Shown piece by piece: positions 1 through 25,177 of a stretch of 25,177 nt of DNA (its first letter is position 1; every line of letters starts with the position of its first letter). The translations under genes were made by a program, and so were the position numbers. The notes beneath the pieces were generated by a model. That model saw only the letters and a program-made list of their open reading frames with translations, ran no database searches and was not told the DNA's origin. Source of the DNA: Rhizaria sp. SCN 62-66 (lineage: Eukaryota); NCBI GenBank assembly GCA_001724265.1, contig MEDY01000164.1, forward strand, positions 124,001 through 149,177, in the 5' to 3' direction.

Positions 1-91
1 AAATAAAACTAAGAGAATGAAGTTACATCTAAAAGGATAAGGACTCCATCGAAGTCATATAAGTATTCTCTCACTTGAAGTTAAGACGCAC

Positions 92-559
92 CTGGGAGGC
101 GCCGCAGGTGACGATGACGTCGTCGGCAGTGTACTTAGTCGCCTCGGACGACTCATACGCGGCAACGGCAGCGCGCGTGGAGGGCAGGCCGAGCGAGTTG
201 GTGTATCCGTTGGCGTTGCCGGCCGCAGCGGCGTCGGCGACGGCGGCGGTGACCTCGGGGGCGGGGGGAAGGTTGCCGAAGACCGAGGGGTCGCCCAGGG
301 CCAGGTCGATCAGAGCGTTCTTGTGGTTCTCGGGGCGCTTGATCTGTGTATAGCAACGCAATAAGCGGGGTGTGTAAGAGAGAAGTGGAGCAGAGAGTGA
401 GATGGGGTGATGAAGTGAAAAGACGGGGTTACAGAAGCGAGATTCATGTGGGCCATAATTGGTGAGAGACAGAAGACGGACCTTGTCGACGACGGCGCGG
501 ATGGGGTTGAGGGTGTTAACCGACATCTGGGACGGGGTGATATTCCACTCGGAAGACAT
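92..559 (-). CDS. TAT: Tyrosine aminotransferase-like (class I PLP aminotransferase), 5' part; gene continues beyond the left edge
   Basis: Exon 1 559-482 (MSSEWNITPSQMSVNTLNPIRAVVDK), GT-AG intron 481-344, exon 2 343-92, next donor GTGCGT at 91. Motifs NPIR, LGDPSVFGNL, NGY...G...R.AVA and DVIVTCGASQ are typical of the TAT/nicotianamine aminotransferase N-terminus. Confidence 0.9.
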
Positions 560-1308
560 ATTTACAACGCTACGTGAGCAGATGGCATGGCAGCGAGAGA
601 AAGAGATGGAGTGAGCAAGAGAAGGGGCGACGTGAGAATGACGTAAAGGCGAAGGGAAAGAGGCGAGTTCGCTATCATAACAAACCATATGATGCTTATA
701 TTGTTGATATATTCGCTAAAACCTCAAATGTTATGCTATACTTAACAGATTTTATCCAATAAAAGGTCTATAGCATGTGGGAGATAAAAAGCGAAGAGGT
801 TTCGGGAACCCACATGACCCTAATATCCGGACGGCGAAAAAGGCTCGTGCGACATAAACTAAACGTCAACGCCGCCATCATTACTAATACAGGCAGAAAA
901 GTTGCGGTGATATGCATACGTCATTATAAAATCCTAGAATAAGGATCTACTGTCGAGATGCATCTATTTCACGAACGCGCCAGATGCTTACCGAAGAGCA
1001 GGCCCAGTCCTGCCGGCCGAAAAATGGGTGGACCCGAAATGTATTTTCTCGGCCAAAGGAAGCGATATCTCGAGGTGTGAAGCGCGATATCCCATCGTTC
1101 AAACAGTGCCCACGCATCCCACTCTTCTTTTTTTCTATTATCTCACTCCCACTATTATCTTTTTCCCTCTTGACCCGCTCGTGTAGCCCGTTCAAGTCAC
1201 TGCCCCTTGCTGTGACTCAGAGCGACTCCTCTCAGACTCTCCAGTCCCATTCCAACCCAGTCGTCATCTCCTGTCCTCGCACCGCGCGCGCTCACCCAGC
1301 CGCCCCCG
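560..1308. promoter_or_regulatory. Divergent (bidirectional) promoter and 5' UTR region between TAT and PFKFB
   Basis: 749 nt between head-to-head ATGs (559 on -, 1309 on +). AT-richer centre with pyrimidine-rich, leader-like sequence on each sense strand. Confidence 0.65.
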
Positions 1309-7536: not shown

Positions 7537-8311
7537 AGCTGTCATCGATAATGGTATAATCGGAACAACATCAGTCAAAACAGGAACAAGTGAAACAAGA
7601 TATGTGTCATAATGACGTCTGTTTTGATATATGAAGGATATATATGCTAGAATACATAATATTAACACTTTTTAATTCCCCCATTCGATGATGTGAATCA
7701 CTGCGTACGTGAGCAAGCAACGAGTCAAATGCAGTCTGAGTGAATTGGCTATCTTGAGATTCTGTAAAGTTTAAACATGTTTATTTTTAGCATATTACTT
7801 ATATTGTAAAACAAACATACATCATCGTTGTCGCTAAACCAAACTACACCACTCCAGCAGCAAGAACCAGCACACTGCAGCACCGAAGCACCACTGTTGG
7901 TTAGTGCGTTGTTGCCACAGGTGAATGTTGAGCTATCACCGTTGGATATGGCGTAAGTTAGTTGTGGTATGTACATAGATCAAGGGGAATCAAGCACAGC
8001 GCCAGCTAAATCGCAACGCTAGTGCAGTCTCGCTCCTATTTGTTGTTGTTGGTATTCTTGTTAGCTTAGTATCGTCAGGGGTCACGGCACCGTCACCGCT
8101 GGCACTGCTGAATGTTGCTGTTGCTCATTATTATTGCTCACCTACTACAGTTACAAAACACACACGCACACAGCAACACCAGCCGCAGCAGTAGCAGCTT
8201 CAGCAGCGCATAGCACCGCGCATCACAGCATTATCACATCATCCTCGTCATCGTTCTCGCCGCCGCCAGCACTCCGCATGTGTGGCGACCGTCCGCGGCG
8301 TGGCGAGTGAC

Positions 8312-8958
8312 TTAGACGTGCTTGTCGATGAAGGCGCGCATGATGATGCCGTGGCCGTCCTTCTCGACGAGCTTGGCGTGCCAGATGAGGAGCGACTCGC
8401 AGACCTTCTTGTCGCCGCCCTCCATGCACTTAAAAACGTACTTCATCACCGTCGCGCGCTCGTCCTCGGAGAGCTCGCCCAGCACGTTGTCGATCGCGCC
8501 CTTGTCGAGCTGCGCGAAGATGGCCGTGATGGCCGCGACGCCGACCTGCTTGACCTCGGCGGACTTGGAAGTGCTGGGGAGCTTGCCGACGGCGAGCTTC
8601 ATGGCCTGCGCCGCCTGGTTGCGCATGATGAGCTGGTTCACCTCGGCCTCGAGCGCCTTCATCTGGGTGAGAGCCTAAAGATATGCGGGGCGCGCGCGGA
8701 AGAAAGAAATAAAAGAATGTGGGAGGTGTGATGTGAAGGTCAAGGTGGTCGAGAGAGAGAGCCAGCAGCAGAGTGAGAGCTGAGAGAGCAAGGGGGGAGG
8801 AGGGTGGCTGATGATAACAAGGAATCTTCTGGGAAAAGGAGCGGAAAGAGGGGATGGAACTAGGAGATTGGAGTATGGGAAGAGTAGGAGAGAAAAACAC
8901 GCACCTCCTCGTCAGAGACGCCAGTGCCCTTAATATCGACCTCCTCTTCGTCAGCCAT
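8312..8958 (-). CDS. ARPC5: Actin-related protein 2/3 complex subunit 5 (p16-Arc), 138 aa
   Basis: Exon 1 8958-8905 (MADEEEVDIKGTGVSDEE), intron 8904-8675 (GTGCGT...TTTAG), exon 2 8674-8312 ending TAA. The C-terminus MKYVFKCME...SLLIWHAKLVEKDGHGIIMRAFIDKHV matches the p16-Arc pattern MKYIYKG...LL.WH.K.....G.G.I.R. Confidence 0.9.
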
Positions 8959-9715
8959 GCTGCCTGCACGCGTCACGAAAGGTGGGGGGGAACGTATCCC
9001 AGTGTCAAAGAGGCAAAACGAAAAAGAGAAAGTGCGAGAAGTGAGAAGCGGTTCAGGCCGTGGAGATTAAATCACAAAACAAAGACAACGTGGAGAATAC
9101 CAAAACGAACTCTGAATCTATAACGCTCGTTCCCCAATCGCACACCAGAGGAACACAAATCAACCACTCGACCAAGCGGCTTGATTTTAGGAGGCGGTGG
9201 CTGGCGCCCGACTGGCCAGACTGGTGACTGTGAGCAGGCTTGAAGTCGTTGGAGAGGCTAAAAAACATGTCTCGTGCAGTCTACTGGCTCCGATAAACGC
9301 GATATTAAGCTTTGTCTAGGTATTGCTTGGCTTTTTCAGCCTTATATTCCTTTTAACAACTGCACTCTAGCGACTTATGGCCTTCAAACAGCACGCGCGG
9401 AGACGACTGCACACTCACCTCATATCGGCTTTTTGGTCTTTGCCAGGCAATATCTCCCCTTCAATGGCTGCTGTTTGAGTTTTTATGGCGCGATCAGTTT
9501 TTTCACTGTTATTTAATATGTGCATCTTGCGGTATTTTTCTTGCAATGTCACTTATCCCTGCCAACATCTGACTAATGCACACCTCACCTCACCGCTTGC
9601 TGTCCTCTGTCTTCGCCTCCCTGCTAGCTGTCTTAAGCCTTTTCTAGTCGTTCTATAACATCAACACCACAACCTAGGCGTTAGTCCTCTTAGTACTGAT
9701 CTTTGTGTGCTACAA
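8959..9715. promoter_or_regulatory. Divergent promoter and 5' UTR region between ARPC5 and the kinesin gene
   Basis: 757 nt between head-to-head ATGs (8958 on -, 9716 on +). Contains tandem GACTGG motifs at 9210-9224. Confidence 0.6.
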
Positions 9716-12700
9716 ATGAGCGCGTCAGGCTCCGTCATGGTTGCCGTCCGCGTCCGTCCCTTCAACACTCGGTACGTTACTTGACCACTCACCACGAATC
9801 ACGAAACATTCAACAACACGCGACAAAGTTTCACGATAGCTCCTCTTAGCTTTACGCTCACTTCTATCATATGTGTTTGTCTGTGTTTACTATAATTATT
9901 TTTGCTGTCTTAACAGTGAGATCGAGATGGGGGCGAAGCTCTGTGTGCAGATGAACGGCCCGACAACGACCTTAATCAACCCCGAATCCGGCGAAGATAA
10001 GAAGTTTTCCTTCGACTATTCCTACTGGTCGCACGACGGCTTTGACACGAACGAGAACGGCGAGATGGTTGCGCGCGAAGGGACTAACTATGCGACGCAG
10101 CGCATGGTGTTCGACAACCTGGGCCGCGACGTGCTCAACTCGGCCTTCGAGGGCTACAACTCGTGTCTGTTTGCCTATGGACAGACAGGCTCCGGCAAGA
10201 GCTACTCCATGGTCGGCTACGGCAACAACAAGGGCATCATCCCGATTGTCTGCGAGGAGATGTTCAAGTCGATCGAGGCCAACACAGACCCGACGATCAA
10301 GTACCAAGTCGTGGTGTCAATGCTCGAGATCTACAATGAGTGCGTCAAGGACTTGCTGAACCCCAAGGTGAACCCGCCGGGCGGACTCAAGATCCGCTCC
10401 AAGCCGGGTATCGGCGTGTACGTCGACGACCTCACGCCCGTGCCCGTGGCGAGTTACGCCGCGATCGAGGCGCAGATGGAGGCAGGCACACTCAACCGCA
10501 CGGTCGCGTCGACCAAGATGAACGCCACGTCGTCGCGCGCGCACACCGTGTTCACGATCATCTTCACCAAGCACCGCTCGGACATGGGGCTGACTTCGGA
10601 GACGCAGTCGCGCATGAACCTCGTCGACCTCGCAGGGTCCGAGCGCGCGGAGTCCACAGGGGCGACCGGAGATCGGTACGGCAAACTTAGCGATTTACTG
10701 GAACAACAAGTAGTGGCACAGATTGTCGCTGCTTTGAGATATTTTTAAGTCATGTCTTCATATATTTGTCTGGGATGCAAATTGTGCTCATATAACTCAC
10801 TTTATATCTCTTTTTGACTATAATTTGTTCTATTTGTTTCCGCTGCTTTCCGCTCCTTGTCTTAGGTTGAAGGAAGGTTGCGCGATTAACGCTTCGTTGT
10901 CTGCGCTGGGTAACGTCATCTCGGCGCTGGCCGACATCTCCTCCGGCAAGGCCAAGAAGGGCGCCTTCGTTCCCTACCGTAACTCCGCGCTCACACGCCT
11001 GCTGCAAGACGCGCTGGGTGGCAACTCGCGCACTATCATGATCTGCGCGCTGTCGCCGGCCGACGTCAACTTTGACGAGACACTGTCGACGCTGCGGTAC
11101 GCGGACCGCGCGAAGCAGATCAAGAACAAGATCTTCAAGATGGAGAACCCGACGGACGCGCTCATCGCCAAGCTTAAGGCCGACAACGCACGCCTTACGG
11201 CCATGCTCGAGGGCCGCATCCCGCCCTCGCTGAGCGACGGCGCGGGCGAGGACCCGGCCGCGACCAAGCAGCTGGGCGACCTGCAGCAGCGCCTCAAGGA
11301 GGTCGAGGAAGAGAAGATCGCGAATGAGAAGCTGCTGCGCGAGATGCAGCGCTCGTGGGAGGACAAGCTGCGCGACGCCGAGGCCGCGGCAGCCGCGGCG
11401 GCCGAGGCGGCCGCGGCGGGCGGCACGGGCGGCGCCGTGTCGCTGCGCACGGCCAAGGCGACCACGCGGCCCTTCATGGTGAACCTGCATGAAGACCCGC
11501 AGATGACGGAGAAAGTTGTCTACGTGTTCAATGAGGGCGCGACGCGCGTCGGCCGCGCGGACGCAGCCGCGCCGCAGGACGTCGTGCTGTCGGGCCTCAA
11601 CATCAGGGCCGAGCACGCGCTCGTCAACTATGACTCCAACACCAAAGGTATGATCACATTACTGCAAATAACTATCTTGTGTTTCACATATACTCTTGTA
11701 TTCATGCTGAATTTGACAGATATTGGTAAAGTTATATTATTTTATATTGTTCCATAATTTTATCTCACCGTACTTCTATCTTGTGTGTATTTAACGTCAT
11801 TTAGCGCTGACCGTTGCGGTAATCGACCCCGAGACGAAGCTCTTCATCAACGGCACTGCCCTGCGCACCCCGGGCGTGGCACGCCCCTTGGCGCACGGCG
11901 ACCGCCTGCTGCTGGGCAACAACTTCGTGTTCCGCGTCGAGTTCCCCCCGCCGGCCGCGGACTCTGACGCGCCGCCTGTGCTGGTGGATCCCGCGTTCCA
12001 GGGCGCCGGAGCATGGGCTGCGGCCATGGCCGAGTTCCAGGCCGCGCAGGGCCGCGGCGGCGCTGGAGCGGGTGGGGACGGCGACGGCGCCGAGGACGCC
12101 GAGGTGGCGAAGCTGCGGAAGCAACTGGAGGAACTGCAGCGCGAGCGCGATGAAAGCAAGGGTGCCGCGGCGACGGCAGCGGCCGCTGGCGAGATCAAAG
12201 AGATTCAGGAGGCGCTCAAGTGGAAGCGCCGGTCGAAGAAGCTCAAGCAGGACGTAGACGCCATGTCGCCGATGATTCATGAGGCCAACTCGCTAGCTGA
12301 TGAGCTGGGCAAAGAACTTGTGTTTGAGGTCAAGATCGAGGTCGTCCGCAAGGGCCCCCTTAAGGTACGCAATGAAAGCAAAAATATGTCGATCTCATTC
12401 ATATGACTCTTGAGAAAGAAAACTTATCTATATTTAACTATGTTGTGAATAATGGTTTTTAAGGTGAATTACTTTATCTAAGCTTGATTTTTAATCGCTA
12501 ACACTCATCCTTACTCACGCTTTTTTCACTCTCTTTGTAGGCGAACGTGTGCATGCGTCGCCCGTCTAATCGCGAAGTGTGGGTGTGGGACATCGAGACG
12601 TTCGAGTCGCGCCTGTTCCTGATGCGCGAGCTCTTCAACCGCGTGCTGGAGCACGGCCCGCAGACGATTCCGCGCGAGTTGGACCCGTTCTGGGAGCCGA

Positions 12701-14071
12701 CGCAGCCCACGGTCCTGGGCCAGTCGTTCGTGTACCTCAAGGCGCTGGCGCAGCTTGTCGAGGTTGACGGCACGTTCCGCGTCGTCGACGCGCGCGGGCT
12801 GGCGCAGGGCGAGCTCAAGGCCGAGATCGTGCCGCTGGGCTCGCGCGGCGAGGAGCTGCCATACTTGCGGTCTTCTTCTGAACTGCTCGGTATGGCCGTG
12901 ACGTTCGAAGTTAAGACGCCCTTCGTGACCAACGTGCCCGCGACTCACGTCACGGACTTGCAGATGTCGTTCCAGTTCCAGGACAAGGAGTTTTGCTTCC
13001 CTGCCGCCAGTGTTGCGCTCGCGGGCGCAGGCGCCACGGCCACGTTCAACTACACGCAGCGACTCCCTGTCACCGTGGACCAGGTATGTTGAACTTTTAA
13101 TTGAACTTATCGTACATATATCGTCTCATACTAGATCTAACTTATCTTGTATCGTACTAATATCTACTCATTCTACTTGTGTCACTTGTTTTATGTCTCT
13201 GTTGTAGCCTTTCCTGACGTACCTGCTGACGGAGGCGATCACGTTCGTGGTCAAGGGCAAGCCCGCGCGCAGCGACGAGCTGCCCACGGACATGCTCCGC
13301 ATCGCGCTCAAGCGCAGGGCGAAGATCAACTCCGCGCCCACGCTCACTCTCGCACACAGCGCCAACGCCGCCGCCGCCGCCGCGATCGCGTCCGCTGCGC
13401 CCGTCGCCGCCCCCGCGCCCGTCGCGGTCCCTGTTGCCGTCATTACCGCTGCTTTGAGCAACGCCGCCTTGTCCCCCTCGAGCTCGGGCTCCAGCTCCAG
13501 CGCGGGCGCGGGTGCGGTGCCGAGCGCGGGTCTGTGCAGCCAGTGCCAGGAGACTGCGGCGACGCTGTGGTGCACCGAGTGCGCGCGCCGGCTCTGCGCG
13601 ACGTGCTTCCCCGTGCTGCACAAGGCCGCGCGCAGGCGGGATCACTCCGCGCTGCCCCTCGACATCGCCATCGAGTCCCTCTCTACCGCCTCTGGCGCGG
13701 CCTCGGGCTCGGCCTCTGGCGGCAAAGCTGGCGGCAGCGTGCTGTGCAGTAAGTGCGGGGAAAACGCGGCGACGGTGCAGTGCGGCGAGTGCGGCCCGGG
13801 CACGGTGTACTGCGATAATTGCAACGGCATGATGCACAAGGCGCCCAGTCGCCGCGACCACGCGCGCACGCTGCTCCAGTCCCAACCTCAGCCCCAGCAG
13901 CAGCGGCAAACTGCCAATGCAGGCGCCGGGGCCATGTGCGGGCTGTGCAAGGACAACCCGGCGGTGGTGACGTGCGCCGAGTGCGAGGGCGCGGCCTACT
14001 GCGAAACGTGCAACGCGCTGCGGCATAAGGCGCCTAGCCGCCGCGACCACGTGCGTGCGCCGATCGCGTGA
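9716..14071 (+). CDS. Kinesin-3 family motor (KIF28/KLP-6-like) with FHA domain, coiled coils and three C-terminal B-box-type zinc fingers, ~1187 aa
   Basis: Six exons joined in frame by GT-AG introns: 9716-9771, 9917-10675, 10866-11647, 11805-12364, 12541-13083, 13208-14071 (3564 nt). Motor motifs [76 protein letters not shown]-like region VNLHEDPQM...VGR...[14 protein letters not shown]. Kinesin-3 tail motif DPFWEP. Confidence 0.92.
13535..14050 (+). repeat. Three tandem B-box-like zinc-finger repeats in the last kinesin exon
   Basis: Units at 13535-13645, 13745-13861 and 13937-14050, each CxxC-x8-CxxC-x4-6-CxxC-x4-H-KAxxRRD-H. Confidence 0.85.
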
Positions 14072-15092
14072 GAAACGGGCGAACGCTGGATCAATAGGAG
14101 AAATATGTTAAATAATGTGTATATAATGATGAATTGTAGTGATGCGCGAAAGCGGGCGTGGAAACCTGCGGTTATATAGAGTCTTTAGCTTGGGGCGGTT
14201 ACTGCCTGAGAACGACAAATTCGCAATAAAGCACGTTATATTCTTTCTTTTAGGTACAAAACATGCTCATACTCTGAAATAAAATGCTGATAGTGTGCAT
14301 GTAAAATTGTATTGCTTGATATGCAATATATAGATGTATATCAACGCAATTTAGCGTGCAAAAATGCTGCACGCGGTCGAAATCTTTATTATATTTAAAG
14401 AATATAAAATCATCGATCTGCGTAAAATTTTATCAGAAATCTTTGCTGTCCACATCTTAAACAACTTTCCAAACTTCTACTGGCAAATCTCTGTTAGGCT
14501 ATGAGTAACAGAACGCAGACAGCGATGTATTTATTTGAAAATGGCAAGTTAAAACGGACATATTGACTCAAAGAAGACAATTGGGAAACGAACTACAGAG
14601 TTGTTGGAGCTGAGACGGACATTTGAAGGAAAAGTGTTGTAGCCGGCGATAGACTCAGAAATAAGTAACAAAACAAGCCAAAAGAAATAGTTCAAGATAA
14701 GATTTGTCACAAAAGTTACTCAATCATGAATAATATGACCATAAAAAAGCGATATGCATGCTCGAAAACGGAAAATGTCCCCTTCGAGTGACCGTGAGCG
14801 CAACTGGCAAGAGGGTAAGGGGCAGAGCTGTTGGTGCACTCGCGGCCCTCTTTGGAAGCAGTTCTGAGTCCTTTAGACACGTTCCGGCCGACTATTTTCA
14901 TTATGACTGTGCACTTGCACTTAGTTTCTTTATCTTCATTGAACGCAACTGGGAGTTGTGGGGACTGTGGAGCTCCGTTAGTGTTCTTAGCCGAGCAACT
15001 GGTTGCTTCAAAACGACGTCTCTTGGCTATTCTGTTTAGTTGCTTTTGCCGACCAAGAGCGCGCATGCTCGTTCTGTTTTTGTTTGTGCCAT

Positions 15093-15134
15093 TATATATC
15101 AACTTATTTCTGCACATACGACTTTTGCTCATTC
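15093..15134 (+). promoter_or_regulatory. Candidate core promoter (TATA-like and initiator-like) for the uORF-bZIP transcript
   Basis: TATATAT at 15093-15099 and GCTCATTC at 15127-15134, followed by pyrimidine-rich leader-like sequence. Motif resemblance only. Confidence 0.3.
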
Positions 15135-15317
15135 TAATCCATCTTGTTCTGTCGCCGTATTGCACAGAAAGAGCCACTCTTTCTTCGCCTCCACAAGCCT
15201 TCCCACTTCCCCCGCTTCCCGGTTCCCAGCTCTGTATCGACACCCTGTTCGACGCAGAGCGCACAGAACCCCACACCTTTCCGCCCCGCGTCGCGCCGCT
15301 CTCGCCGCGTCTCGTTC

Positions 15318-15542
15318 ATGCGCAAGAGTCACTGCCGCATCTCAATCCCTCTGCTTTTGATCGCCACCCTGCACTTCATCGTTTACTTCTCCGCCGTTAC
15401 CCAGACCAACGCCTGCACCTTCCTTATCCGCGAGTCCGCGAACACCAAGCACCTCTCGTACCACGCCATCAACCCGTACGCCGCTCAGTTCGGCCACGCT
15501 CGCTACCACCACTTCTCGTCGCTCTTTCTCGCACTTCGCTAG
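15318..15542 (+). CDS. 74-aa small ORF, probable peptide-encoding uORF in the bZIP 5' leader (or an independent microprotein gene)
   Basis: ATG...TAG encoding MRKSHCRISIPLLLIATLHFIVYFSAVTQTNACTFLIRESANTKHLSYHAINPYAAQFGHARYHHFSSLFLALR. By hand count 62/74 codons end in G/C; all Arg are CGC, Ile ATC, His CAC, Tyr TAC, Asn AAC. It carries the only ATG between ~15070 and the bZIP ATG at 16078. Confidence 0.7.
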   Translation: MRKSHCRISIPLLLIATLHFIVYFSAVTQTNACTFLIRESANTKHLSYHAINPYAAQFGHARYHHFSSLFLALR

Positions 15543-16077
15543 CTCTAGGCCCGAGGGCGGCTAAGCCACCTCGCCCGCGCGCAGCGCTCTCCCGGACTCC
15601 AACAGCTCGCGACTTCGGCCCTTAAGCGAACACTCGCGCTTTCTCGACACAAACAAGCGCTTTCTTCCGCGACAGGACTTACTTCAGGCTCAGGCGCAGG
15701 TTTCGGCTCCACCGGCACAGGCTTCAGTTCAGGTTCCTCGGACTCAGACTCGGACGCTAACAACAGTAACTTTATCGCTTACACCGCTGCTGCAAACACT
15801 CTTGCTCTCTCTGCGTAAGACTCGTTCCTGTTATTTAGTTTCCCCCAAAGTCTTTGTTCCCACAGTTACCTTCTTGTTTCCTGTTTTCTTCTCCTCAACC
15901 ACCACTCGGTTAAGTGTAAACTCCACGATCAAAAGCAGAGGTTGATACATCCAGTTTGTTCAAACCTTCGCACAAACACCACACCGGTTCTTTTCTTTTC
16001 CCCCGTTTCTTTACTTTCATCGTCTTTTACTTCGTTCGTCGCTTGCACGTTTGCAACACAACAAACACACCACCACG

Positions 16078-18444
16078 ATGGATTTTTTCTCTCCTTTCTC
16101 CTCTGCTGCCGACTCTGTCGCTGCCTCTGCCCACGGCCACGGCCACTTGCACTCCACGACTGGCGTGCTGCCCGTCGGCCACCTCGCCCGCAGCCGCAGC
16201 CACAGCACGGCCGATAACGACAACATCGCCAACCTCAGCACGGGCGACGACAACGCCCTGTCGCTCCTCGCCTTCCCCCCTCTCCAGCTCCAGCCGCTCA
16301 ACCCGCACCACGCCCACGGCCACGACAGCATTCTCGGTCTCGACCATGCTCTCGGCGGCGGCTTGACTTCCAACAACACCAACACCAGCGCCAACAACGC
16401 TAACAGCAACAGCAACAGCAACAGCAACAACAGCGAAGCTGCTTCTGCTCGCTTTGCTAACAACAACATTATGTCACACAACAACGATATCAATGCTAAC
16501 ACCAACAACAACATCAACAACAACTCTACAACTCACGACAACGCATACGGCCACTATCACGCTTCCGTCTCCGCTTCCGCTTCTGCGTCCTCTGTCGCCG
16601 CCGCGCCCGCCGCCGCCGCGTTCCCGCACGCCGCGCTCGCGCTTAACTCCATGGCCAACGCCGCCGCCGCCGCCGCCGCGGCTGCCGCCGCCGTTTCCGC
16701 GTGCTCTGCGCCTGCGACGTCGGTTGTGACGGCGCCCGCGCGCTCCGGCCGCGGCTCCCGCGCCTCGCCCTCCGCCCTGCCCGCCTCGGCCTCGGCCTCC
16801 CACTCGGCCTCGGCCGCCCCCGCCTCTGCGACCTGCGCATCTGTGGTGGTGACGGCAACGGGCCGCCAGGTGCGCCGCGCCGCGCCTACCGACGCCAGCG
16901 ACGGCTACGCCTCCAGCGCCGGCAACGGCAGTGGCAACGGCAACGGCTACGGCAGCAACGGCTCTGCGTCGTCGGTGCAGCACCAGTCGAAGCGCACGCG
17001 CGTCGCCAAGCAGCCCGCGGCCGGCGGCAAGTCCACTGCCTCGGCTTCAATGGCCAACGGCCGCCGCGGCGGTCGCCAGCAGCAACAGCAGCAACAGCAG
17101 CAGCAGCAGCGCGGCAGCGCGAGCTCTGACTCTGATTCGGAGACCGACGGCCTGGCTTCCGTCTACAGCCACGGCCACAGCGGTGGTCGCGGCTACGGCG
17201 CGTACTCAGCTCACGGACACACCTCGTTGCACTACCACGGAAGCCACGGCCACAGCGGCGGCGGCAGCGGCAGCGGCAGCGCGCTCGACGACGATACCCA
17301 CAGCCTGACCGACGGCCGCGACTCGCCCAGCTTCGGGCTCGACGCGGCCGCGGCGGCGCTGCTCGACGGAGACTGCGACGGCGACGGCGGCGACGGCGAC
17401 ACCTTCGACCTGCGCGCGGCCGCCGTCGCGGGCGGCATCGACCCCGCGCTGCTGTCGGCCGAGCAGATCCGGCTCCTGGTTGAGGAGAACTCCCTCAAGA
17501 AGCAGCGTCTCGCGCGCAAGGCCGCCCTCGCGCGCGCGTCGCGGCAGAAGAAGAAGAGCAAGCTCGACGAGCTCGAGGACGAGAACGCGCGGCTCCGCGA
17601 AGAGCTCGCCGCCGCGCGCACCGCGCTGCTGCGCGCTGCCGCGGGGCCGCCCGTCGCCCACCCCGCCTCGGCCGCCGCCGCCGCCGCCGCCGCGCACGCG
17701 CACGCGCACGCGCAGTCCCAGCTTTACCAGCGCCAGCAGCAGCAGTTGCAGCAGCAGCAACAGCACTCGTGGCTGGCGCCCGGGTCCGCCTCGTCGAGCG
17801 CGCCGTCCTCCGTCCCCGGCTCGCCGCTCTCCGTCTCCTCCGGCTCCGGCTCTGTCTCGAACGCTGGCTCGAACGCCAGCGTGAACGCGAATGTGGCGCC
17901 GATGCTGCCCGCGGCCGCCGCCTCGGTCATTGCCGCCGTCGCCAGCGCCAACGCCGTCTCTGGCAGCGCTGCCGGCAGAGTGACCGGAGTGCCGAGCCCG
18001 CTCTCGCTCTCCCGCGCCGGCTCCGACCACGGCGACAACGGCAATGGAAACGGCAACGGCAACGGCAGCAGCAGCAGCACCGCGATCACTACCGCCACCG
18101 CCACCGCCTCCGACGCCGTGGCGCCTGCGCCCGCGACTGCCGCCACCGCCGCTGCCGCCGCTGCCGCCGGCGTCTTCGCTCCCGCGGTGGCTGCGAGTGC
18201 GGCCGACGCCGAGGCTCTGCGCGCGACGCTGGTCCAGATCGCGTCGCTGATGGCGCCCGTCCTGTCGCACCTGCTGCCCGCCGCCGCCGCCGCGTTCCCG
18301 GCTGCCGCCGCCGCCGCCGCCGCCGCTGCCGCCTCGGCCGCCGCGGCGAACGGCAAGGCCGTCGCCGCCCCGCCGTCGCCCGCTGCCACCGCCGCCGTCA
18401 TCATTGCTGCTGCGGCTGGCTCTGACGCGAGCGGGTCGCAGTAA
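16078..18444 (+). CDS. bZIP transcription factor with atypical basic region, embedded in low-complexity sequence (788 aa, single exon)
   Basis: First in-frame ATG 16078, TAA 18442-18444. Basic region and zipper at ~17497-17630: KKQRLARKAALARASRQKKKSKLDELEDENARLREELAAAR (K-x7-R-x9-L-x6-L). Confidence 0.85.
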   Translation: MDFFSPFSSAADSVAASAHGHGHLHSTTGVLPVGHLARSRSHSTADNDNIANLSTGDDNALSLLAFPPLQLQPLNPHHAHGHDSILGLDHALGGGLTSNNTNTSANNANSNSNSNSNNSEAASARFANNNIMSHNNDINANTNNNINNNSTTHDNAYGHYHASVSASASASSVAAAPAAAAFPHAALALNSMANAAAAAAAAAAAVSACSAPATSVVTAPARSGRGSRASPSALPASASASHSASAAPASATCASVVVTATGRQVRRAAPTDASDGYASSAGNGSGNGNGYGSNGSASSVQHQSKRTRVAKQPAAGGKSTASASMANGRRGGRQQQQQQQQQQQRGSASSDSDSETDGLASVYSHGHSGGRGYGAYSAHGHTSLHYHGSHGHSGGGSGSGSALDDDTHSLTDGRDSPSFGLDAAAAALLDGDCDGDGGDGDTFDLRAAAVAGGIDPALLSAEQIRLLVEENSLKKQRLARKAALARASRQKKKSKLDELEDENARLREELAAARTALLRAAAGPPVAHPASAAAAAAAAHAHAHAQSQLYQRQQQQLQQQQQHSWLAPGSASSSAPSSVPGSPLSVSSGSGSVSNAGSNASVNANVAPMLPAAAASVIAAVASANAVSGSAAGRVTGVPSPLSLSRAGSDHGDNGNGNGNGNGSSSSTAITTATATASDAVAPAPATAATAAAAAAAGVFAPAVAASAADAEALRATLVQIASLMAPVLSHLLPAAAAAFPAAAAAAAAAAASAAAANGKAVAAPPSPAATAAVIIAAAAGSDASGSQ

Positions 18445-18490
18445 GCAGCCAGCAGGAGGCGCAGCCGAGCCAGTGCGAGGTCGCAATGCT

Positions 18491-18910
18491 TTGGCCTCGG
18501 TCATGTGTCCGTACTCTGTCGTGTGCATTTGCGAGACTGTGTTGTGTGTTTTCGTGTAAGTTTTTTCGTGTGTGTGTTTCTGGGTGTCCCTGAGGGCGAG
18601 TGTGAGTGTGCGATGAAGTGACCGTGTTGAGAAGACATTATATTAGACTGTCCAGTCCCCGAGTGTGCGAGTTGTGATATAGGGGCCGCCGCACCGTCAG
18701 CACTGCCGCTGACGCTCCCGCTGTCACTGCAATAACTTGCGACACTTGGGACTCGGAGTCTATGTTGGTCTTCTCAAACTCGTAACTCCTGTCGCGCTAT
18801 TCATTCTCTCGCTCTTGTTTGCACTCTCAACGATAAACACATCCGTCACACAACACCACACTCCAATCTCACAGCCACTTGAACCAACTGCACAGGCACA
18901 AGAGAGCCAA
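18491..18910 (+). ncRNA. Long nested RNA hairpin directly 3' of the bZIP stop (structured 3' UTR element or small-RNA precursor)
   Basis: About 15 colinearly nested helices. Examples: GTGTTGTGTG 18539-48/CACACAACAC 18847-56; TTGAGAAGAC 18627-36/GTCTTCTCAA 18768-77; 18654-75/18732-53; apical CGTCAGC 18695-701/GCTGACG 18708-14. Imperfect positions within helices are G.U on the + strand. Confidence 0.65.
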
Positions 18911-19000
18911 TTCGTCGGAGTAAACGAGCGCTTCGTCGTGAAGTTTATCCAACTAGAGTTTCGATGTTAGGTCATGTTTTAATGTTTAGTTATATCAGTG

Positions 19001-19303
19001 TTTTGTTTTGATATTATATGTTAGCTTATTAGTGTATGGTGATGGTGAGGGCTGCGGTAGTGGCAAAAACGATGGCGACAGCGTAATGTTGTTGTTGTTG
19101 ATGTTGGTATTGCAGGTAGCCCCAGTGAGAGGGGGGAGGCGAGCACAAAAACAAACAAAATTAGTATGTTTTTCGTATCACAAGACAGCAAAATACCACG
19201 TACGGATTGGCAACAACAATACCAACAAAAAAAGAAGAAAATAGTCAGCCCCGTTCAGCGTGAAGAAAAATGAGAAAAAATCATCCAAAAACCAAAGACA
19301 AAA
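19001..19303 (+). other. Second fold-back segment in the putative bZIP 3' UTR
   Basis: Perfect 11-bp inverted repeat TGTTGGTATTG 19102-12/CAATACCAACA 19217-27, nested in GGGCTG 19049-54/CAGCCC 19246-51 and TTTTGTTTTG 19001-10/CAAAGACAAAA 19293-303. Confidence 0.4.
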
Positions 19304-19421
19304 GACAACATATGAAAAGTAACGACAACAATAAGAAAATAACACACATTGTCAACTGTTGCGCGTATTTGTCGCACGTGTGACCCCACTTGTACGGTCT
19401 ATGATTGATCTAAAAGTGGTG

Positions 19422-19468
19422 TTCCTGAGTGTCTGTGTGCGCCTACTATGCCACACCTCGCTCAGGAG
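19422..19468 (+). other. Compact stem-loop in the putative bZIP 3' UTR
   Basis: TTCCTGAGTG 19422-31 pairs with CGCTCAGGAG 19459-68 (two U.G pairs); inner GTGTG 19435-39/CACAC 19452-56. Confidence 0.45.
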
Positions 19469-19690
19469 AGGAAGAAGAAGGAAGAGAGCGACTGCCAACA
19501 AGCCACACTCCACAGCACACCACCACACTGCCCCGCCCTGCACTGCGCTTCCTCAAAGCCAGTGTCAGCTGCCGCGCGTGTCTGTTCGTGTCCTTGCGTG
19601 AGCTTCTTGGAGCAAAGCATCATTCCATAGTTTATCCGTTTCGTAGTCCCAAATGTAGTTTATCAGTAAATATTTCTTTATTATCAACAA

Positions 19691-19696
19691 AATAAA
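19691..19696 (+). terminator. Candidate polyadenylation signal for the bZIP mRNA
   Basis: First AATAAA I find after the bZIP stop, in an AT-rich patch. Comparable AATAAA follow the kinesin (14225-30) and CEP83-like (24318-23) stops. Confidence 0.35.
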
Positions 19697-20034
19697 GCTC
19701 GCTGTTCCCCAAAAAACCAAGTCATTTTTTCATACGCGCTTGTTATGTTGCTTTATAACTCGATTTTGCACAGTTGTGAGAGGCTGCTGTCGCTTGCTTG
19801 TCACTCGGCCTGGCAGGCAGACTGGCCTCCAACGGCTAGCAGCAAGGGGCGTTGACTTTAAATTTGCGTTTAAAATTCTAGACGATCAATCTGTTGATGT
19901 GGAGAGTTATTGATCGATATGAATATTCTTGTTAATTTATTTGCGTGTTTTGCTTCTTATTTTCCTTCTAGACTTTAGGACACAACTCTTTTCGCTTCGG
20001 CAGTCGACCCCCTTTCCTCTCGGCCGCTGCTCTG

Positions 20035-23000
20035 ATGGCGCACCGGCCCTCGGACCACACCGAGGATTACCAATTCGAGTTTGAGTTCGAAGACAACTCC
20101 CAGCACAGCTCCAGCCGCCAGCGCAGCCCCCACAACGCCGCTGCTGCCGCTCCCGCCCCTGCTATCCCTTCTTCCAGTTCGCTACCCGCAGCCGCATCCG
20201 TTTCCAGCGTCCCGCCCTCGGCCGAGCCTGCGCCCGCGTCCGTGCCCGTTCAGCAGTCCTCCTCCGCGGACGAGCTTGAGTTCGAGGACTTCAACACCTC
20301 CGAGCTGAATGTCCTGAACCCCGCTAAGGTCACCGTCCACGCCCCGTCGTTGCCCCAGCTCGCCCCCGCGAACTCTCAACACCACAACGACAGCGCGCAG
20401 CCCGGCGCGTCCCGGAGCCACTCGCAGCACGGCAACGGCAACGGCTCCGCGCATGCCGCGGATCCCGCTGGAAACACGCCCCCGCTTGGCCGGTCACCAC
20501 GCGCCACAGTCTCATCCGCCTCCCTGACCCCCGAGATCTCGCCCCGCCGCGCCAGCGCCAGCGCCGCCGCCAGCGCCGCCTCGCCCGCCGCTGCCGCCGC
20601 GAACAACGACAGCGGCGCCGCAGCCGTGGTGACGGACGCGACCGCGACGGACGCAAGCAACGCCGGCCTCTCCTCGCTCACCGCGTTTGCGGCCCTGGCA
20701 GCGCCGCCGTCGTCGTCGTCGGGGGGCTCCAGCGGGCTGTCGCTGCCGCCGCTGCCGGAGACGGACCTCATCACCACCAGCTCCACGCGCGCCGCCCGCG
20801 CACAGGGCCCCGGGCCCCACGGCGCGGGGGCGCGCTACACTGGCGGCGGCGGCGCAATTGACGAGGAGGTTGCGGGCGTGTCGTTCGTGTCGTCAACCTC
20901 GAGCTCTTCGTCCGCCGCGCTGTCTGCGCCCACGGCGGCGCTGGCGCCGGTGTCGGCTCCGGCGAGCGTGAACAACAACGCTGTTGCAATCGCTGGTATG
21001 CAACCGCTACAACAACCGCAGCCGCAATCTCAGCAACAGCAGCAACAGCAGCTACAACAGCAGGCCGCTCCTGTTGCCAGCACCAGCAGCAGCAGCAGTC
21101 GCAACGACTTCGCCAACGATGCTAACAGCTTGCCGGCCTCCCGCGGCCGCGATCGCGAGCGTGATCGTGACCGCGCCAGCGATCGCAGTGACCGTGAGCA
21201 GCCGTTTGGCTCCGCCAGCGGCCAGCCAGTCACCCAGGGCCAGGGCCCGGGCATCGGCGGCAGTAGCAGTCTCGGCCACGGTCATGGCCGTGCGCGCGAG
21301 CGCCCCACCCGCGGCGGCAGCAGCGTCGACGTCGACAGCGACTACCAGCAGAGCCCGGTCCAAGCGCACACACAGCTGCAACAGTCTCAACTGCCCTCGC
21401 CACCGCAGCCGCCCGGCCGCAGCCGCAGCCGCGGCGGCCGCAGCAGCAGCAGCAGCAGCGGCGGCGGCGGCGGCAGCAGCGGTGCCGGCCGCGGCGACGC
21501 GTCAGGCGCTCTGACCGCCGCCGTGGGCGTAGGATCGCACCTGCAGGGCGACGTGGGGATCCTGGCGCGCGAGTGTGAGCGGCTGCGGCGCGAGCTCGAC
21601 CGCACCACCAGGCTCAAGGAGGCCGCGGAGGACGACCTGAGGGTCGTCAAGCAGGAACTCGTACGTCAACAACGTTAACAATCGATAGATCAATGATGAA
21701 AAACAATGAGCTTCGAGGAATTTAACTTCTCATTTTGATTTTACACCGCAAATGTATCAAATCAGTTATTTTGGTGATGTTCACTAACTGTACTTTCTTC
21801 TGCGTATTCATCTGTTTTGTTTGTGATCGTTTTGCTTGTAGGAGGCGGCCAAGGCGACCTCGGTGGCGATGTTCGACGACTGGTCCGTGATGCTGGGCCA
21901 GGCGCGGCAGCGCCAACGCGACCTGGAGGCCGCGCCCGTGTCGCCGCAGGTCGTGGAAGACATGCGGCTGAGTCTCATGGAGGAGCTCGAGACGGCCTAC
22001 CAGCACCGGTTCGCCAAGCTCATGGAGGTACGCTCAGTTGCACTTATGGGTTGTTAACGCAACACTTCTCGACAAGAAGCTCACATAGGTCTAAATAAGA
22101 ATTGATTATTGCTCCCTCAGAATTCATCTTGGATCGTATCTTACTTTTTCGTATTTCTGTAACCTATGCCTCTCCCGCGTAGGAAATGAACCGGTTTCGG
22201 ACGCTATACTCCGAGGAGTACGACGCGCACGAGCTGGCGCGCCACGCCGCGTCCCTGGCCGAGAGCCAGCACGCCGCCGCGCTGCGCGACCTCAAGCGCG
22301 CGCACGCCGCGATCCTTGCGCGCAACACCACGCAGCTTGAGGAGCTGCAGAGCGCCGTACGTCTTTCAGCAAAACCGAACTACCGAACAAGCATATCGTT
22401 AAGATGACTTGAAAATAATTGTTCTTGCATTTCTATCTGAAACTCGGAGAACACAACAGATAAGCTTACTTGAGTCCCTTCATCTTATGTTTTTTTTGAA
22501 ACGCATTCTAACTGGTTACACATGTGTAGCTTGAGGCGGCACGCGTGAGTGATCCTGCGCCGGCGCTGCAACAGGCGTTGCGCGAGGTCCGCGCTAAGCT
22601 TTCGGCCTCGGAGCTTCGCTCTGAGCAACTCAGGCACGTCCTTATATCACTAGCTGTTTCAAGATTTCTGTAATCATTGCGTAGAAACACAACATATTTC
22701 TCAATCAACACTCTCAATCAAATGTGTCATTATTTCTCATTACGTCTTTGCTATCTTATCCCTGTACTTTGACATCCGCTCGCACAGCAAGCAACTCTCG
22801 TCCGCCGAGGTGGCGCACGAGGGGGTCAAGGCGGCCTTCCACCGCGACCTCTCGGACGCCCGCGCCTCTCTAGCGCACGAGCAGGCCCGCGCAGCCGCCG
22901 CGGCCGCCAAGGCCGTGCGTCTCTCCTCCGAGCTGGACGCCGCGCAGGCGCTGGCGGCGCGGTGCGAGGACGAGCTGTCGCGAATGCGCTGTGAACACGC

Positions 23001-24171
23001 CCGCGCGCGCGCTGAGGCGCTCAAGGCGACGCAGGACGCCGAGGCCGCCGCCAAGGCCGCAGTGGCGCGCGCCGCCGCGCTCGAGGCGGCGACCGAGGAG
23101 CGCCGCGCGGCGACGGCCTCGCGCGTCGAGACGCTCAGCGCGGACCTCATCCGCGCCAGCGCAGCGCGCGACGCGGCCGAGGAGCGTGCGGCGGCGCTGC
23201 TGCGGGAGCACGCGCTTGCGCTGCAGGCCGCCGAGGAGCGCGGCGTGCGCTCGGCGCTCGCGGAGCAGGCCAAGGCAGCGGCCGCGGCGGGCGAGCTTTC
23301 CGAGCTGCGGCTCCGCGTTGCCGCGCAGGCGCAGGCAGCCGACGCCGAGGCCGCGCGGGCTGCGGCGCGCACGGCCGAACTCGAGGCCGCGCTGCGTGCC
23401 GGAGAGGCCGCGCGCGCAAGCGCGGAGCGGGAGGCCGCGGCGCTGCGCGAGCGCGTGCGCGCGGCGGAGCGCGACGCGTCGGGCGCGGGCGAGGCGGCGC
23501 AGCGGCTCGAGGTCGCGCTGGCCGAGGAGCGCAACGACCCCAAGAGCACGACGAGTGTGCGCGGGGAGCTCGATCGCGTCGTCGCGCGTGCCGAGGCCGC
23601 CGAGCGCGCGGCTGGCGAGGCGCGCGAGAAGGAGAGCATGGCCGCGGCGGCGCTGGCGAGCCTCAAGGCGGCCGCGCGCGGGCAGCAGCGCGAGATGGCC
23701 GGGGAGATCGCGCGGCTCGAAACTGCGCTGGCGGCGGCGCAGACGGCCGCGGCAGAGGCGGGCTCGCAGGCGGGCGCGCGCGCCGACGCGCTGGCGCTGG
23801 GGAAAGAGAAGTACAAGGCGATGGCCGCGGCGGCAGACCAGCGCGCGGGGCAGCTAGACGCGCAGCTGCGGTCCCTCGCGGGGGCGTACAAGACGCAGCA
23901 GCAGCAGCGCGCCGCGCTCGACGCGGAGCTCGCCAGCGCGCGCGTGCGGCTGCAGCACGCGCTCAAGCAGCAGCAGCAGGGCAACCCCGCCGTAGCGGTC
24001 TCCGCTGACGGAGCCGGGAATGCGGAGGAAGAGGACGGCGCTGCCGGCGCTGGCGCTGGCGCAGGTGCTTTGACTGGCGCTGGCGCTGCTGGGTGCAGGA
24101 GTGTTGGCGAGACGAGTGCCGAGCAGCTGCTGCGTCGGAGCGAGGCGAAGCTGCGCTGGGGAATCCCTTGA
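20035..24171 (+). CDS. CEP83: CEP83/CCDC41-like centriolar distal-appendage coiled-coil protein with long disordered N-terminus, ~1157 aa
   Basis: Exons 20035-21660, 21842-22027, 22183-22356, 22530-22633, 22788-24171 join in frame (3474 nt; last intron GC-AG). SPQVVEDMRLSLMEELETAYQHRFAKLMEEMNRFRTLY resembles, from memory, the CEP83 segment [38 protein letters not shown]. The remainder is Ala/Glu/Arg-rich coiled coil. Confidence 0.7.
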
Positions 24172-24521
24172 GCATGCATGCAGGAGACCCGTTTGCTCAT
24201 ATCTCAGTTTATAGTGAGTTATGTGTGAGGTTTTGGCCAACTTGAAGTGTGATTCGTGGCGGAGATTGGCCTGCTGGCGACGATGACCAGCGACTGTGAG
24301 GATAATATGTTCATTGTAATAAATAAAAAACTTGAATTCACGACATACTCCGAAATATGATCCTTTTAGTTTAATTTTAGTTGTTTTTGCGATACTTTTG
24401 TTGGTTTTCTGACCGAGTGATCGAAGTTAAGCCGCCGACCGGTCCAGTCCCAGTCTGATGGCGAGAGGTGAGATGGAAAACTTTGCTGTTTCGATACGGT
24501 CGTTACAAACACATTTCCACA

Positions 24522-25177
24522 ATGTCCGCTCTTGCGCTCAACGTACGTGTTATTTTATATCTACTACAATTATTCGTAATTCGTGTACCGTCGTTTATCT
24601 CTCCCTGTAAACCCTCGCGCATTCGTCTCTGTCCCACGGCTTCTGCGGTGTGCCTAGCTTCTTCCTCACTTTGCTGTTTTCACACACGCCACACCCTTTT
24701 TTTCCAACTGCTTTTGTGCTGTATAGGCTGATGACGTTAAGCTTATGCTTACCGCCCAGGTCCACATCGGTACCAAGAACATGTCCGATGCCATGACCCC
24801 CTACATCTGGCGCCGCAAGCGCGACGGCATCTGCCTCATCAACCTCGGCAAGACCTGGGAGAAGATCGTCCTTGCTGCCCGCGTCATCGTGGCCATCGAG
24901 AACCCCGAGGACGTCCTTGTCGTCTCCGGCCGTGCTCACGGCCAGCGCTCCATCTTCAAGTTCGCTCAGTACACTGGCGCTTCCTACATCTCTGCCCGCT
25001 TCTCCGCTGGTACTCTCACTAACCAGTCGCAGGCCCGCCGCTTCGTCGAGCCCCGCGTCCTGATGGTCACCGACCCCCTCGTCGACCACCAGCCCATCAA
25101 GGAGTCTTCCTACGTCAACATCCCCATCATCGCCCTCTGCGACGCTGATGCCCCCCTCCGCTGCGTCGACATCGCCA
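24522..25177 (+). CDS. RPSA: 40S ribosomal protein SA (uS2), 5' part; runs off the right edge
   Basis: Exon 1 24522-24542 (MSALALN), intron 24543-24726 (GTACGT...ATAG), exon 2 from 24727: [18 protein letters not shown]...[31 protein letters not shown]...GTLTNQ...[30 protein letters not shown]. Not in the supplied ORF track. Confidence 0.97.

Follow-up and report, generated by a model that had tools for sequence, protein, structure and literature searches.

Two coding units on the + strand

We analyzed a 25,177-nt stretch of DNA from Rhizaria sp. SCN 62-66 (contig MEDY01000164.1; the whole stretch is referred to below as the window and numbered from its first letter), with emphasis on the + strand segment 15093–19696, where a short open reading frame (ORF) of 74 codons is followed by a 788-codon ORF for a bZIP-like protein. 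A first-pass annotation had treated this segment as one mRNA, in which an upstream ORF (uORF) encodes a peptide that gates bZIP translation and a long structured 3′ untranslated region (UTR) acts on the message. In the sequence we recognize two genuine coding units, arranged head-to-tail on the + strand and 535 nt apart, and the locus contains the following features.

15093–15099, +: TATA-like TATATAT, with C-rich, G-poor sequence starting just 3′ of it
15318–15542, +: 74-codon ORF, from the ATG at 15318 to the TAG at 15540–15542, its end reading TAG-CTC-TAG
15543–16077, +: inter-ORF spacer of 535 nt; C-rich, G-poor, weakly structured and ATG-free in all frames
15603–15680, +: conserved block without coding signal, similar in frame to the tail of the ORF of a relative, P0003
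16078–18444, +: 788-codon ORF; uninterrupted and intron-free, with a single coding phase throughout
17449–17631, +: bZIP-like domain (residues 458–518), consisting of an LL.E..LKK lead-in, the basic region RLARKAALARASRQKKK and a short zipper
18585–18823, +: long imperfect hairpin, starting 141 nt past the bZIP stop, with its apex near 18701–18708
19046–19124, +: second, smaller hairpin, its 5′ arm rich in (TGT)n and its 3′ arm rich in ACA
19691–19696, +: first AATAAA past the bZIP stop, 1246 nt downstream and 344 nt before the ATG at 20035

The 74-codon ORF encodes a signal-anchor-like peptide

Coding regions of the window have a GC fraction at third codon positions (GC3) of 0.85–0.95, and its non-coding DNA is more AT-rich. 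The small ORF showed a GC3 of 0.84 as opposed to 0.50 and 0.42 in its other two frames, and a codon log-odds model trained on 1888 codons from seven confident coding segments of the window assigned it 0.95 bit/codon as opposed to −0.87 and −1.02. Among the 25 ATG-initiated ORFs of at least 40 codons located in the presumed non-coding intervals of the window it ranked first by codon score, the second and third ranks being occupied by what are probably exons of a coiled-coil gene further downstream. The coding signal dropped exactly at the TAG, with the score falling from 0.74 before it to −0.56 and 0.02 after it and GC3 from 0.83 to 0.57 and 0.53; the 89 in-frame codons past the stop scored −0.26 at a GC3 of 0.55. 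The encoded peptide has a basic N-terminus, a single hydrophobic segment at residues 8–26 with a mean Kyte-Doolittle hydropathy of 2.0, and a His/Tyr-rich tail. Thus, both the codon optimization and the hydrophobic product ascribed to this ORF in the first-pass annotation held up. We conclude that the small ORF is a genuine coding sequence for a small signal-anchor-like peptide, which is predicted to be, probably, also a functional membrane micro-protein in its own right.

The peptide matched no family in a Pfam search; the ESM Atlas search returned no feature match, and its structure matches were of the generic single-helix kind only. A word-index search among proteins of near length retrieved a single candidate, the peptide itself, and a word-index search over 12 longer candidates revealed one homolog, P0003, a 146-aa protein that carries the JGI label ‘hypothetical protein’. 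The two sequences share the start Met and are identical at 44 of 71 positions (62%), with 35 of 44 identical over residues 1–44 (80%), 19 of 19 over the hydrophobic residues 8–26, and ~33% identity (9 of 27 columns) beyond residue 44. The peptide is therefore conserved between species, as seen through this one relative. Known arrest-peptide uORFs concentrate their conservation at the C-terminal, stop-proximal end. Here, the conservation was N-terminal and located in the membrane anchor, and the ORF stops after 74 codons in the window and after 146 in P0003. The position of the stop is not conserved, because similarity to the P0003 tail resumes in the same frame past both TAGs of the window ORF (14 of 26 residues identical, E = 4e-4 for the pair). 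An arrest-peptide mechanism thus fits poorly, and the analogy with arrest peptides drawn earlier was not sustained: conservation falls on the N-terminal anchor, and the stop differs between the relatives.

The in-frame similarity past the stop corresponds to the block 15603–15680. This block could belong to the bZIP promoter or, in a shared leader, act as an RNA element. Read from the sequence, this block contains direct repeats, GCGCTTTCT twice and CGCGAC twice.

The 788-codon ORF encodes a divergent bZIP with a non-canonical basic region

The larger ORF, with a GC3 of 0.87 and a codon score of 0.77 bit/codon, is intronless as described before, and the ESM Atlas contains an identical 788-aa sequence, letter for letter. 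The protein is of low complexity, with runs of Ala, Ser, Asn, Gln and Gly, and carries one conserved bZIP-like domain. Taken alone, it was poorly recognized. The whole protein matched 0 Pfam families at E ≤ 0.01, the candidate domain scored 9.9–10.7 bits against Pfam bZIP_2 (PF07716), below the cut-off of 22.3, and of the 8000 candidates in a word search over proteins of 433–1379 aa none reached E ≤ 0.01, so that not even the query was recovered. When HMMER was run exhaustively with the 101-residue domain against 1.84 billion representatives, 42 proteins came up at E ≤ 1e-3, the best at E = 1.3e-10 and 61% identity. The motif LL.E..LK+.RLARKA(E/A)LARxSR++KK...LE.E was common to 41 of these 42 matches; P0015, a repetitive false match, was left out of the alignment (A1), which consisted of the query and 41 relatives. 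When searched for the peptide of the small ORF, none of the 41 relatives carried it as a fused segment.

The signature of a bZIP basic region is Asn-x7-Arg. This signature is absent from the family: Lys481 occupies the canonical Asn position and Arg489 is retained, both being invariant in 42 of 42 aligned sequences, and the residue after Lys481 is Ala rather than Arg. The invariant domain positions of A1 are L39, K42, A43, A46, R47, R50 and K53. Leucine heptads follow, with Leu499 (+10 from Arg489), Leu506 (+17) and Ala513 at the d positions and Asn503, Leu510 and Leu517 at the a positions. The zipper is short, ~3 heptads, and its helix breaks at Gly-Pro-Pro; domain positions L60 and L67 are nearly invariant.

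Among solved structures, the best matches were plant TGA-type bZIPs, to which the basic regions aligned gap-free, the profile stretch RLARKAeLARlSRkrKK pairing with the basic region of TGA7. Their E-values were modest, E = 0.85 for the single sequence against TGA3 (7tac) and E = 2.6e-4 for the A1 profile against TGA7 (8gyz; E = 0.016 for the bZIP stretch), and the profile matched CREB (0.13), c-Jun (0.25) and GCN4 (0.77–0.86) weakly. Relative to the TGA proteins, the window protein substitutes Lys for Asn, Ala for the next Arg and Leu for one Ala, and it has no match to their second domain. Eight of the 42 HMMER matches touched Pfam bZIP_1 (PF00170) or bZIP_2 at E < 0.01, P0022 alone reaching the Pfam cut-off, exactly. 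The nearest ESM Atlas cluster by features was a bZIP cluster, with a score of 0.91 and 170 shared features. Taken together, these comparisons support the 788-codon ORF, at the family level only, as a divergent bZIP-family member with a non-canonical basic region. The earlier designation of an atypical bZIP was therefore borne out through the 41 relatives and not through the query, which alone fails Pfam. The Lys-for-Asn variant is conserved across the aligned family and is not an accident of this gene.

Outside the bZIP domain, the closest relatives share low-complexity sequence only, BLASTP finding the bZIP region alone. Many members of A1 contain a second C-terminal region with the consensus ...F..W...Q.D.FY.D..GLW..LF..., which weakly matches the post-bZIP part of TGA7 (domain E = 0.56). 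A family-profile search of the 788-aa protein found no second domain, and the closest relatives also appear to be without it. A second C-terminal helix common to P0004, P0005 and P0020, noticed by eye only, was rejected when BLASTP and the profile gave it no support.

Non-canonical bZIPs have been described in oomycetes. The account of the Phytophthora sojae proteins, in the part available to us, distinguishes the Asn-substituted classes C-R, R-R, V-R and N-K (PMC4046829). As in the window family, the invariant Asn is replaced in these proteins and the Arg eight residues on is retained (PMC4046829). In either case many proteins conserve the variant, which is therefore presumably functional. 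The window family differs by its K-R pair and its fixed RLARKA(E/A)LARxSR motif, which are not among the classes named there (PMC4046829, same part). Diatom taxa among the nearest ESM Atlas clusters, the occurrence of non-Asn bZIPs in oomycetes and the JGI origin of P0003 are three hints, and no more than hints, of a stramenopile source.

The putative leader and the spacer are poor in AUG and rich in C

The composition of the + strand switches at ~15100, next to the TATATAT at 15093, with the fraction of C rising from 0.21 to 0.40. The first-pass annotation placed a putative core promoter here. The motif is indeed present, but it is one of 11 TATAWAW sites scattered over both strands of the AT-rich non-coding DNA of the window, and for this reason it is not distinctive. 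The 985-nt putative leader, 15093–16077, contains exactly one ATG on the + strand, at 15318. Mononucleotide composition would predict 8.7, and the mean of 2000 dinucleotide-preserving shuffles was 2.26; the six triplets of the same composition occurred once (ATG), twice (TGA), three times each (TAG and GAT), seven times (GTA) and 10 times (AGT). Accordingly, the single uAUG reported for this leader is a true count and a suggestive one, but not statistically distinctive, since dinucleotide composition accounts for most of it (P = 0.31).

The small-ORF start is followed by 757 nt without ATG (15321–16077). Along the 535-nt spacer that makes up most of this interval, GC skew ran from −0.19 through −0.34 to −0.50. 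A scan of the spacer for AATAAA and ATTAAA found neither, with TGTAA at 15915 only, and spacer foldings gave z = +2.09, worse than 197 of 200 shuffles, and z = +0.41. The start contexts are gttcATGc for the small ORF (T at −3, C at +4) and cacgATGg for the bZIP ORF (A at −3, G at +4). The locus thus presents a weak start followed by a strong one without intervening AUG, an arrangement whose AUG scarcity has a chance P of 0.31–0.57 under dinucleotide shuffles and whose contexts were judged by a rule from which the consensus of the host may differ.

In contrast to the spacer, the region around the small-ORF start, 15104–15379 (+), folded better than its shuffles (ΔG −63.6, z = −3.69, 0 of 200 equally stable), with a predicted stem that pairs ~15120–15132 with bases at or just 3′ of the small-ORF AUG. 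A function of this fold is something that we can only infer.

A strand-biased hairpin downstream of the bZIP ORF

The 996 nt past the bZIP stop folded at z = −2.68 (20 shuffles). For comparison, 276-nt windows of the + strand were scanned over 1–10350, 14000–16069, 18310–19965, 21600–22841 and 24100–24789, and − strand folding was limited to 18585–18860. The lowest z of the 116 + strand windows belonged to the hairpin 18585–18823, which comprises 91 pairs (44 GC, 33 AU and 14 GU) with a ΔG of −104.6. Its z was −4.59 on the + strand, where 0 of 200 shuffles were as stable, and −1.88 on the − strand. The 14 G-U pairs, together with this gap between the strands, suggest selection at the RNA level. 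Two other windows of the 3′ region, which overlap the smaller hairpin, reached −3.71 and −3.38 (20 shuffles); in the rest of the scan no window went below the −3.36 of 15104–15379. The value of −3.71, obtained with 20 shuffles for 18862–19137, was only −2.71 with 200, and 19030–19260, which spans the smaller hairpin, gave z = −2.05. Thus, of the 1.25 kb previously called highly self-complementary, one strong hairpin of 239 nt and several weaker ones were confirmed, and the description was otherwise overstated. An Rfam search of the hairpin region and of 15000–20100 gave no match at E ≤ 1 beyond one sub-threshold microRNA (miRNA) model, and no second copy of the hairpin was found in the 25-kb window. 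Its arms have only 10-mers in common, and on these results it does not qualify as a precursor of miRNA or small interfering RNA (siRNA) or a miniature inverted-repeat transposable element.

The first AATAAA past the bZIP stop lies at 19691, 1246 nt downstream, in agreement with the ~1.25 kb given before. Weaker variants of the poly(A) signal occur earlier, TGTAA at 18555, GATAAA at 18832 and AGTAAA at 18919. Elsewhere in the window, AATAAA was found 147–207 nt past the stops of the kinesin and coiled-coil genes and nowhere near the ends of the PFK2 and ARPC5 genes. The absence of AATAAA before 19691 was the sole basis for proposing a 1.25-kb 3′ UTR, and it does not define such a UTR, because two of five other gene ends also have no AATAAA nearby.

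IRE1 targets carry paired stem-loops with 7-nt CNGNNGN loops around a frame-changing intron. A scan of 15093–19700 for loops of this type identified five single stem-loops, compared to 2.3 ± 1.4 in block shuffles, and no convincing pair. With this count and nothing in Rfam, an unconventional intron of the HAC1/XBP1 kind received no support. In an admittedly crude test of pairing between the leader and the 3′ region, the duplex energy was −402.8 compared to −412.7 ± 10.9 for 40 block-shuffled tails, indicating no excess of complementarity.

One transcript or two genes

Our preferred reading of the two coding units, tentative and only slightly favored, is that they share a transcript from ~15.1 kb, with the small ORF 5′-proximal and the bZIP ORF reached by leaky scanning; we give it a rough probability of 0.42. 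One transcript would start near 15.1 kb and carry the small ORF as its 5′-proximal cistron in a weak start context. Ribosomes that skip the small-ORF AUG would then cross 757 AUG-free, weakly structured nt to the strong-context AUG of the bZIP ORF, so that translation of the small ORF would set bZIP output, as happens by leaky scanning in uORF-controlled and bicistronic mRNAs. The mRNA would most likely end within a few hundred nt of the bZIP stop, probably short of 19691, and the hairpin 18585–18823 would lie in, or just past, its 3′ UTR. If the transcript is shared, leaky scanning fits best because of the weak upstream context, the lack of an intervening AUG and the open leader. Base composition argues for sharing. 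The 200 nt past the small-ORF stop have a GC fraction of 0.63 and a GC skew of −0.19, compared to 0.36–0.56 and +0.06 to +0.30 for the five real 3′ flanks of the window, those of the PFK2, kinesin, bZIP, coiled-coil and ARPC5 genes. The ‘flank’ of ORF547, the 547-codon ORF of the coiled-coil gene, was left out of this set because it is an intron. Regions 5′ of start codons are C-rich, with a skew of −0.01 to −0.59 in six of seven, in a set that includes ARPC5 and kinesin starts that are probably not true ones.

A number of observations count against a shared transcript, and many of them are what two ordinary neighboring genes, adjacent without regulatory meaning, would produce. Separate genes are a serious possibility to which we assign somewhat less than even odds. 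The small ORF would then have its promoter near 15.1 kb and its poly(A) site at ~15.85–15.96 kb, where GC falls to 0.43, and the bZIP mRNA would begin in the pyrimidine tract at ~15.99–16.04 kb and so have a short leader. The 3′-flank comparison has an n of 5, and the arguments from composition, AUG content and low structure are not independent, because all of them stem from one C-rich, G-poor sequence. This composition also explains the AUG scarcity: the probability of at most one ATG in the leader was 0.31 under dinucleotide shuffles, and the absence of ATG from the spacer, where the shuffle mean was 0.53, had P = 0.57. PFK2, ORF547, the small ORF and the bZIP ORF each have a T/C-rich tract 40–190 nt 5′ of the ATG; that of the bZIP ORF, 40–90 nt upstream, is spaced like those of PFK2 and ORF547 and fits a bZIP promoter of its own. 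Between two troughs, of about −0.44 and −0.50, the GC skew is only −0.19, as two units would give. The conserved, repeat-bearing block 15603–15680 is 400–470 nt 5′ of the bZIP ATG, a plausible promoter position, and could be an element of the bZIP promoter. Genes of the window can be closely spaced (the RPSA first exon lies <573 nt past the preceding stop), its other tandem genes being at most ~350–570 nt apart. For a uORF or a bicistronic system, both a leader of 950 nt and a gap of 535 nt between the ORFs are long. An ordinary small gene would show the full codon bias and the conservation seen in the small ORF; the ORF of P0003 is annotated as a separate protein of its own, and both window ORFs occur as separate predicted proteins in the collections searched. 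On the other side, the sequence past the small-ORF stop resembles none of the five real 3′ flanks, either in skew or in GC, the 535-nt spacer lacks AATAAA and ATTAAA, and 757 nt without ATG separate a weak start context from a strong one. None of these three points is decisive.

The full model of the first-pass annotation goes further than the shared transcript that we prefer. It requires one mRNA from ~15.1 to ~19.7 kb, a nascent uORF peptide that gates bZIP translation in cis by arrest or docking at the endoplasmic reticulum (ER), and a structured 3′ UTR of 1.25 kb that controls localization, stability or small-RNA output, a combination that we consider unlikely as a whole. Every argument for a shared transcript applies to it, as do the + strand bias of the hairpin, the location of the three lowest-z windows in the 3′ region (16 windows were scanned there) and the absence of AATAAA before 19691. 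However, with 200 shuffles the z of one of those three windows came to only −2.71, a nearby AATAAA is likewise missing from two of five other gene ends, and an end at 19691 would leave 344 nt to the next ATG. In addition, the peptide is conserved in its N-terminal anchor and stops at 74 as against 146 codons, no Rfam family was matched, the IRE1-type loops numbered five against 2.3 ± 1.4 without a convincing pair, and complementarity between leader and 3′ region was not in excess. Less probable still is that the small ORF was left by truncation of an ancestor of ~146–166 codons, or that its TAG is read through or reassigned to give a product extending to the TAA at 15816. The in-frame similarity to P0003 past both TAGs (14 of 26) and the open frame from 15549 to 15815 would agree with a longer product, and the small ORF is alone in ending with TAG, the other gene ends having TAA or TGA. 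Against this, the signal for coding is lost right at the TAG, the confident coding regions of the window, all of them ORFs of the standard code, have no in-frame TAG, and an open frame of 89 codons is not unusual in stop-poor C-rich DNA (three TAG and two TGA per 985 nt).

For reassignment or readthrough of the TAG in particular, the loss of coding signal past it was the ground for rejection. A splice that would join the small ORF to the bZIP ORF, or remove its stops, was likewise rejected: no GT would leave the conserved C-terminus intact, and the sole option is a 31-nt interval, compared to introns of ~75–190 nt in this window. A fusion of the two products was discarded as well, since the N-terminal anchor would place the bZIP in the lumen.

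Comparison with known systems

bZIP mRNAs under uORF control include GCN4, ATF4, the plant S1 group with its conserved-peptide uORF, and the fungal hac1/hacA leaders. Like these, the window locus has an upstream ORF before a bZIP ORF on the same strand, and at least one other species has a conserved version of its peptide. Unlike them, it has one long ORF of 74 codons with full codon bias instead of several short ones and a spacer of 535 nt, the conservation is N-terminal and hydrophobic rather than stop-proximal, and co-transcription is here putative.

Leaky-scanning bicistronic mRNAs of green algae provide a parallel to the arrangement of the start codons. In the part of their description available to us, ORF1 has a weak start context and ORF2 a strong one with no AUG upstream of ORF2, ORF1 often encodes a very small membrane protein, OST4 and TOM22 being examples, and many inter-ORF regions are <100 nt, some being >100 bp (PMC11291117). 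As far as that part goes, the window locus resembles these bicistrons in its small membrane-type ORF1, larger ORF2, order of contexts and AUG-free interval, and it differs in lineage and in its 535-nt gap, which is not a short one (PMC11291117).

A hydrophobic nascent segment is also a property of XBP1u, which, in the portion of the source at hand, carries the hydrophobic HR2 and an arrest peptide, HR2 lying within the bZIP ORF and working with an IRE1-spliced intron (PMC10501990). In common with XBP1u, the window has a hydrophobic nascent segment, possibly on the bZIP mRNA, which could recruit the mRNA to the ER via the signal recognition particle (SRP); unlike the segment described in that portion, it has an upstream ORF to itself, and the loop scan gave no convincing IRE1-type pair. 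By extension of this analogy, the small ORF might be a cis-acting targeting cistron whose strictly conserved anchor helix would engage SRP and the translocon during translation and dock the bZIP mRNA at the ER, so that bZIP synthesis, set by the balance between leaky scanning and uORF occupancy, would report translocation capacity. Such a scheme, which we regard as highly improbable, would follow XBP1u-HR2-like logic from a separate upstream ORF, without IRE1 splicing and with a lineage-specific K-R bZIP. A survey of the literature on uORF-bZIP arrangements in stramenopiles and on bZIPs in thraustochytrids found no description of such a locus.

Neighboring genes in the window

The remainder of the window contains several recognizable genes.

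− strand: aminotransferase fragment
1309–7536, +: PFK2/FBPase-2 gene, a single 2075-codon ORF
8312–8662, −: ARPC5 (P16-Arc), with a profile match that begins at position 34
9927–14071, +: kinesin-3-like gene, spliced
20035–24171, +: coiled-coil gene, probably spliced, comprising ORF547, two small ORFs and a coiled-coil ORF
From 24745, +: RPSA, its ORF beginning mid-protein

Spliceosomal introns are present, with observed sizes of ~75–190 nt. Both catalytic domains of PFK2/FBPase-2 fall within residues ~1650–2056, preceded by ~1650 low-complexity residues. The ARPC5 ORF is without an upstream exon, because its profile match begins at position 34, and a 116-codon + strand ORF at 8328–8678 that mirrors it is an artefact. 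The kinesin-3-like gene combines motor, Kinesin_assoc and KIF1B domains with three C-terminal ANCHR-like B-box zinc fingers, an unusual combination, and its introns are AT-rich, e.g. 10676–10866 (GTACGG...TTAG) and ~11728–11803. Downstream of the bZIP gene, the apparent stop of the 547-codon ORF at 21676–21678 falls on a splice-donor-like GGTAAC, and coding resumes past ...ttgcttgtag near 21839. ORF547, the high-scoring small ORFs 21869–22054 and 22186–22404 and the coiled-coil ORF 22984–24171 are probably one spliced gene; an ORF of 486 codons that covers this region on the − strand appears to be an antisense artefact. Because the RPSA ORF begins mid-protein, its first exon must lie <573 nt past the preceding stop, within 24172–24744. 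This interval also holds the RPSA promoter and the poly(A) signal of the previous gene (AATAAA at 24318 and 24322), and a short ATG exon followed by GTACGT was seen by eye near 24520, upstream of the RPSA ORF. Tandem genes in this window can thus be packed very tightly.

Implications

Taken one by one, the components of the locus belong to familiar categories, namely an orphan ORF for a micro-protein, a divergent member of the bZIP family and a hairpin on the 3′ side. Should the two ORFs be separate genes, the neighborhood is an ordinary one that includes a single orphan micro-protein gene. A real linkage between them would instead represent a novel form of uORF or bicistronic control over a transcription factor, with a long, codon-optimized and conserved membrane-anchor peptide as the upstream product of the mRNA. 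Such a design, if true, would fall outside the classic uORF-bZIP cases and would extend leaky-scanning bicistrons beyond green algae. Whatever the transcript structure, the locus draws attention to a conserved bZIP-like family of 41 relatives with the fixed motif RLARKA(E/A)LARxSR, in which Lys replaces the DNA-contacting Asn.

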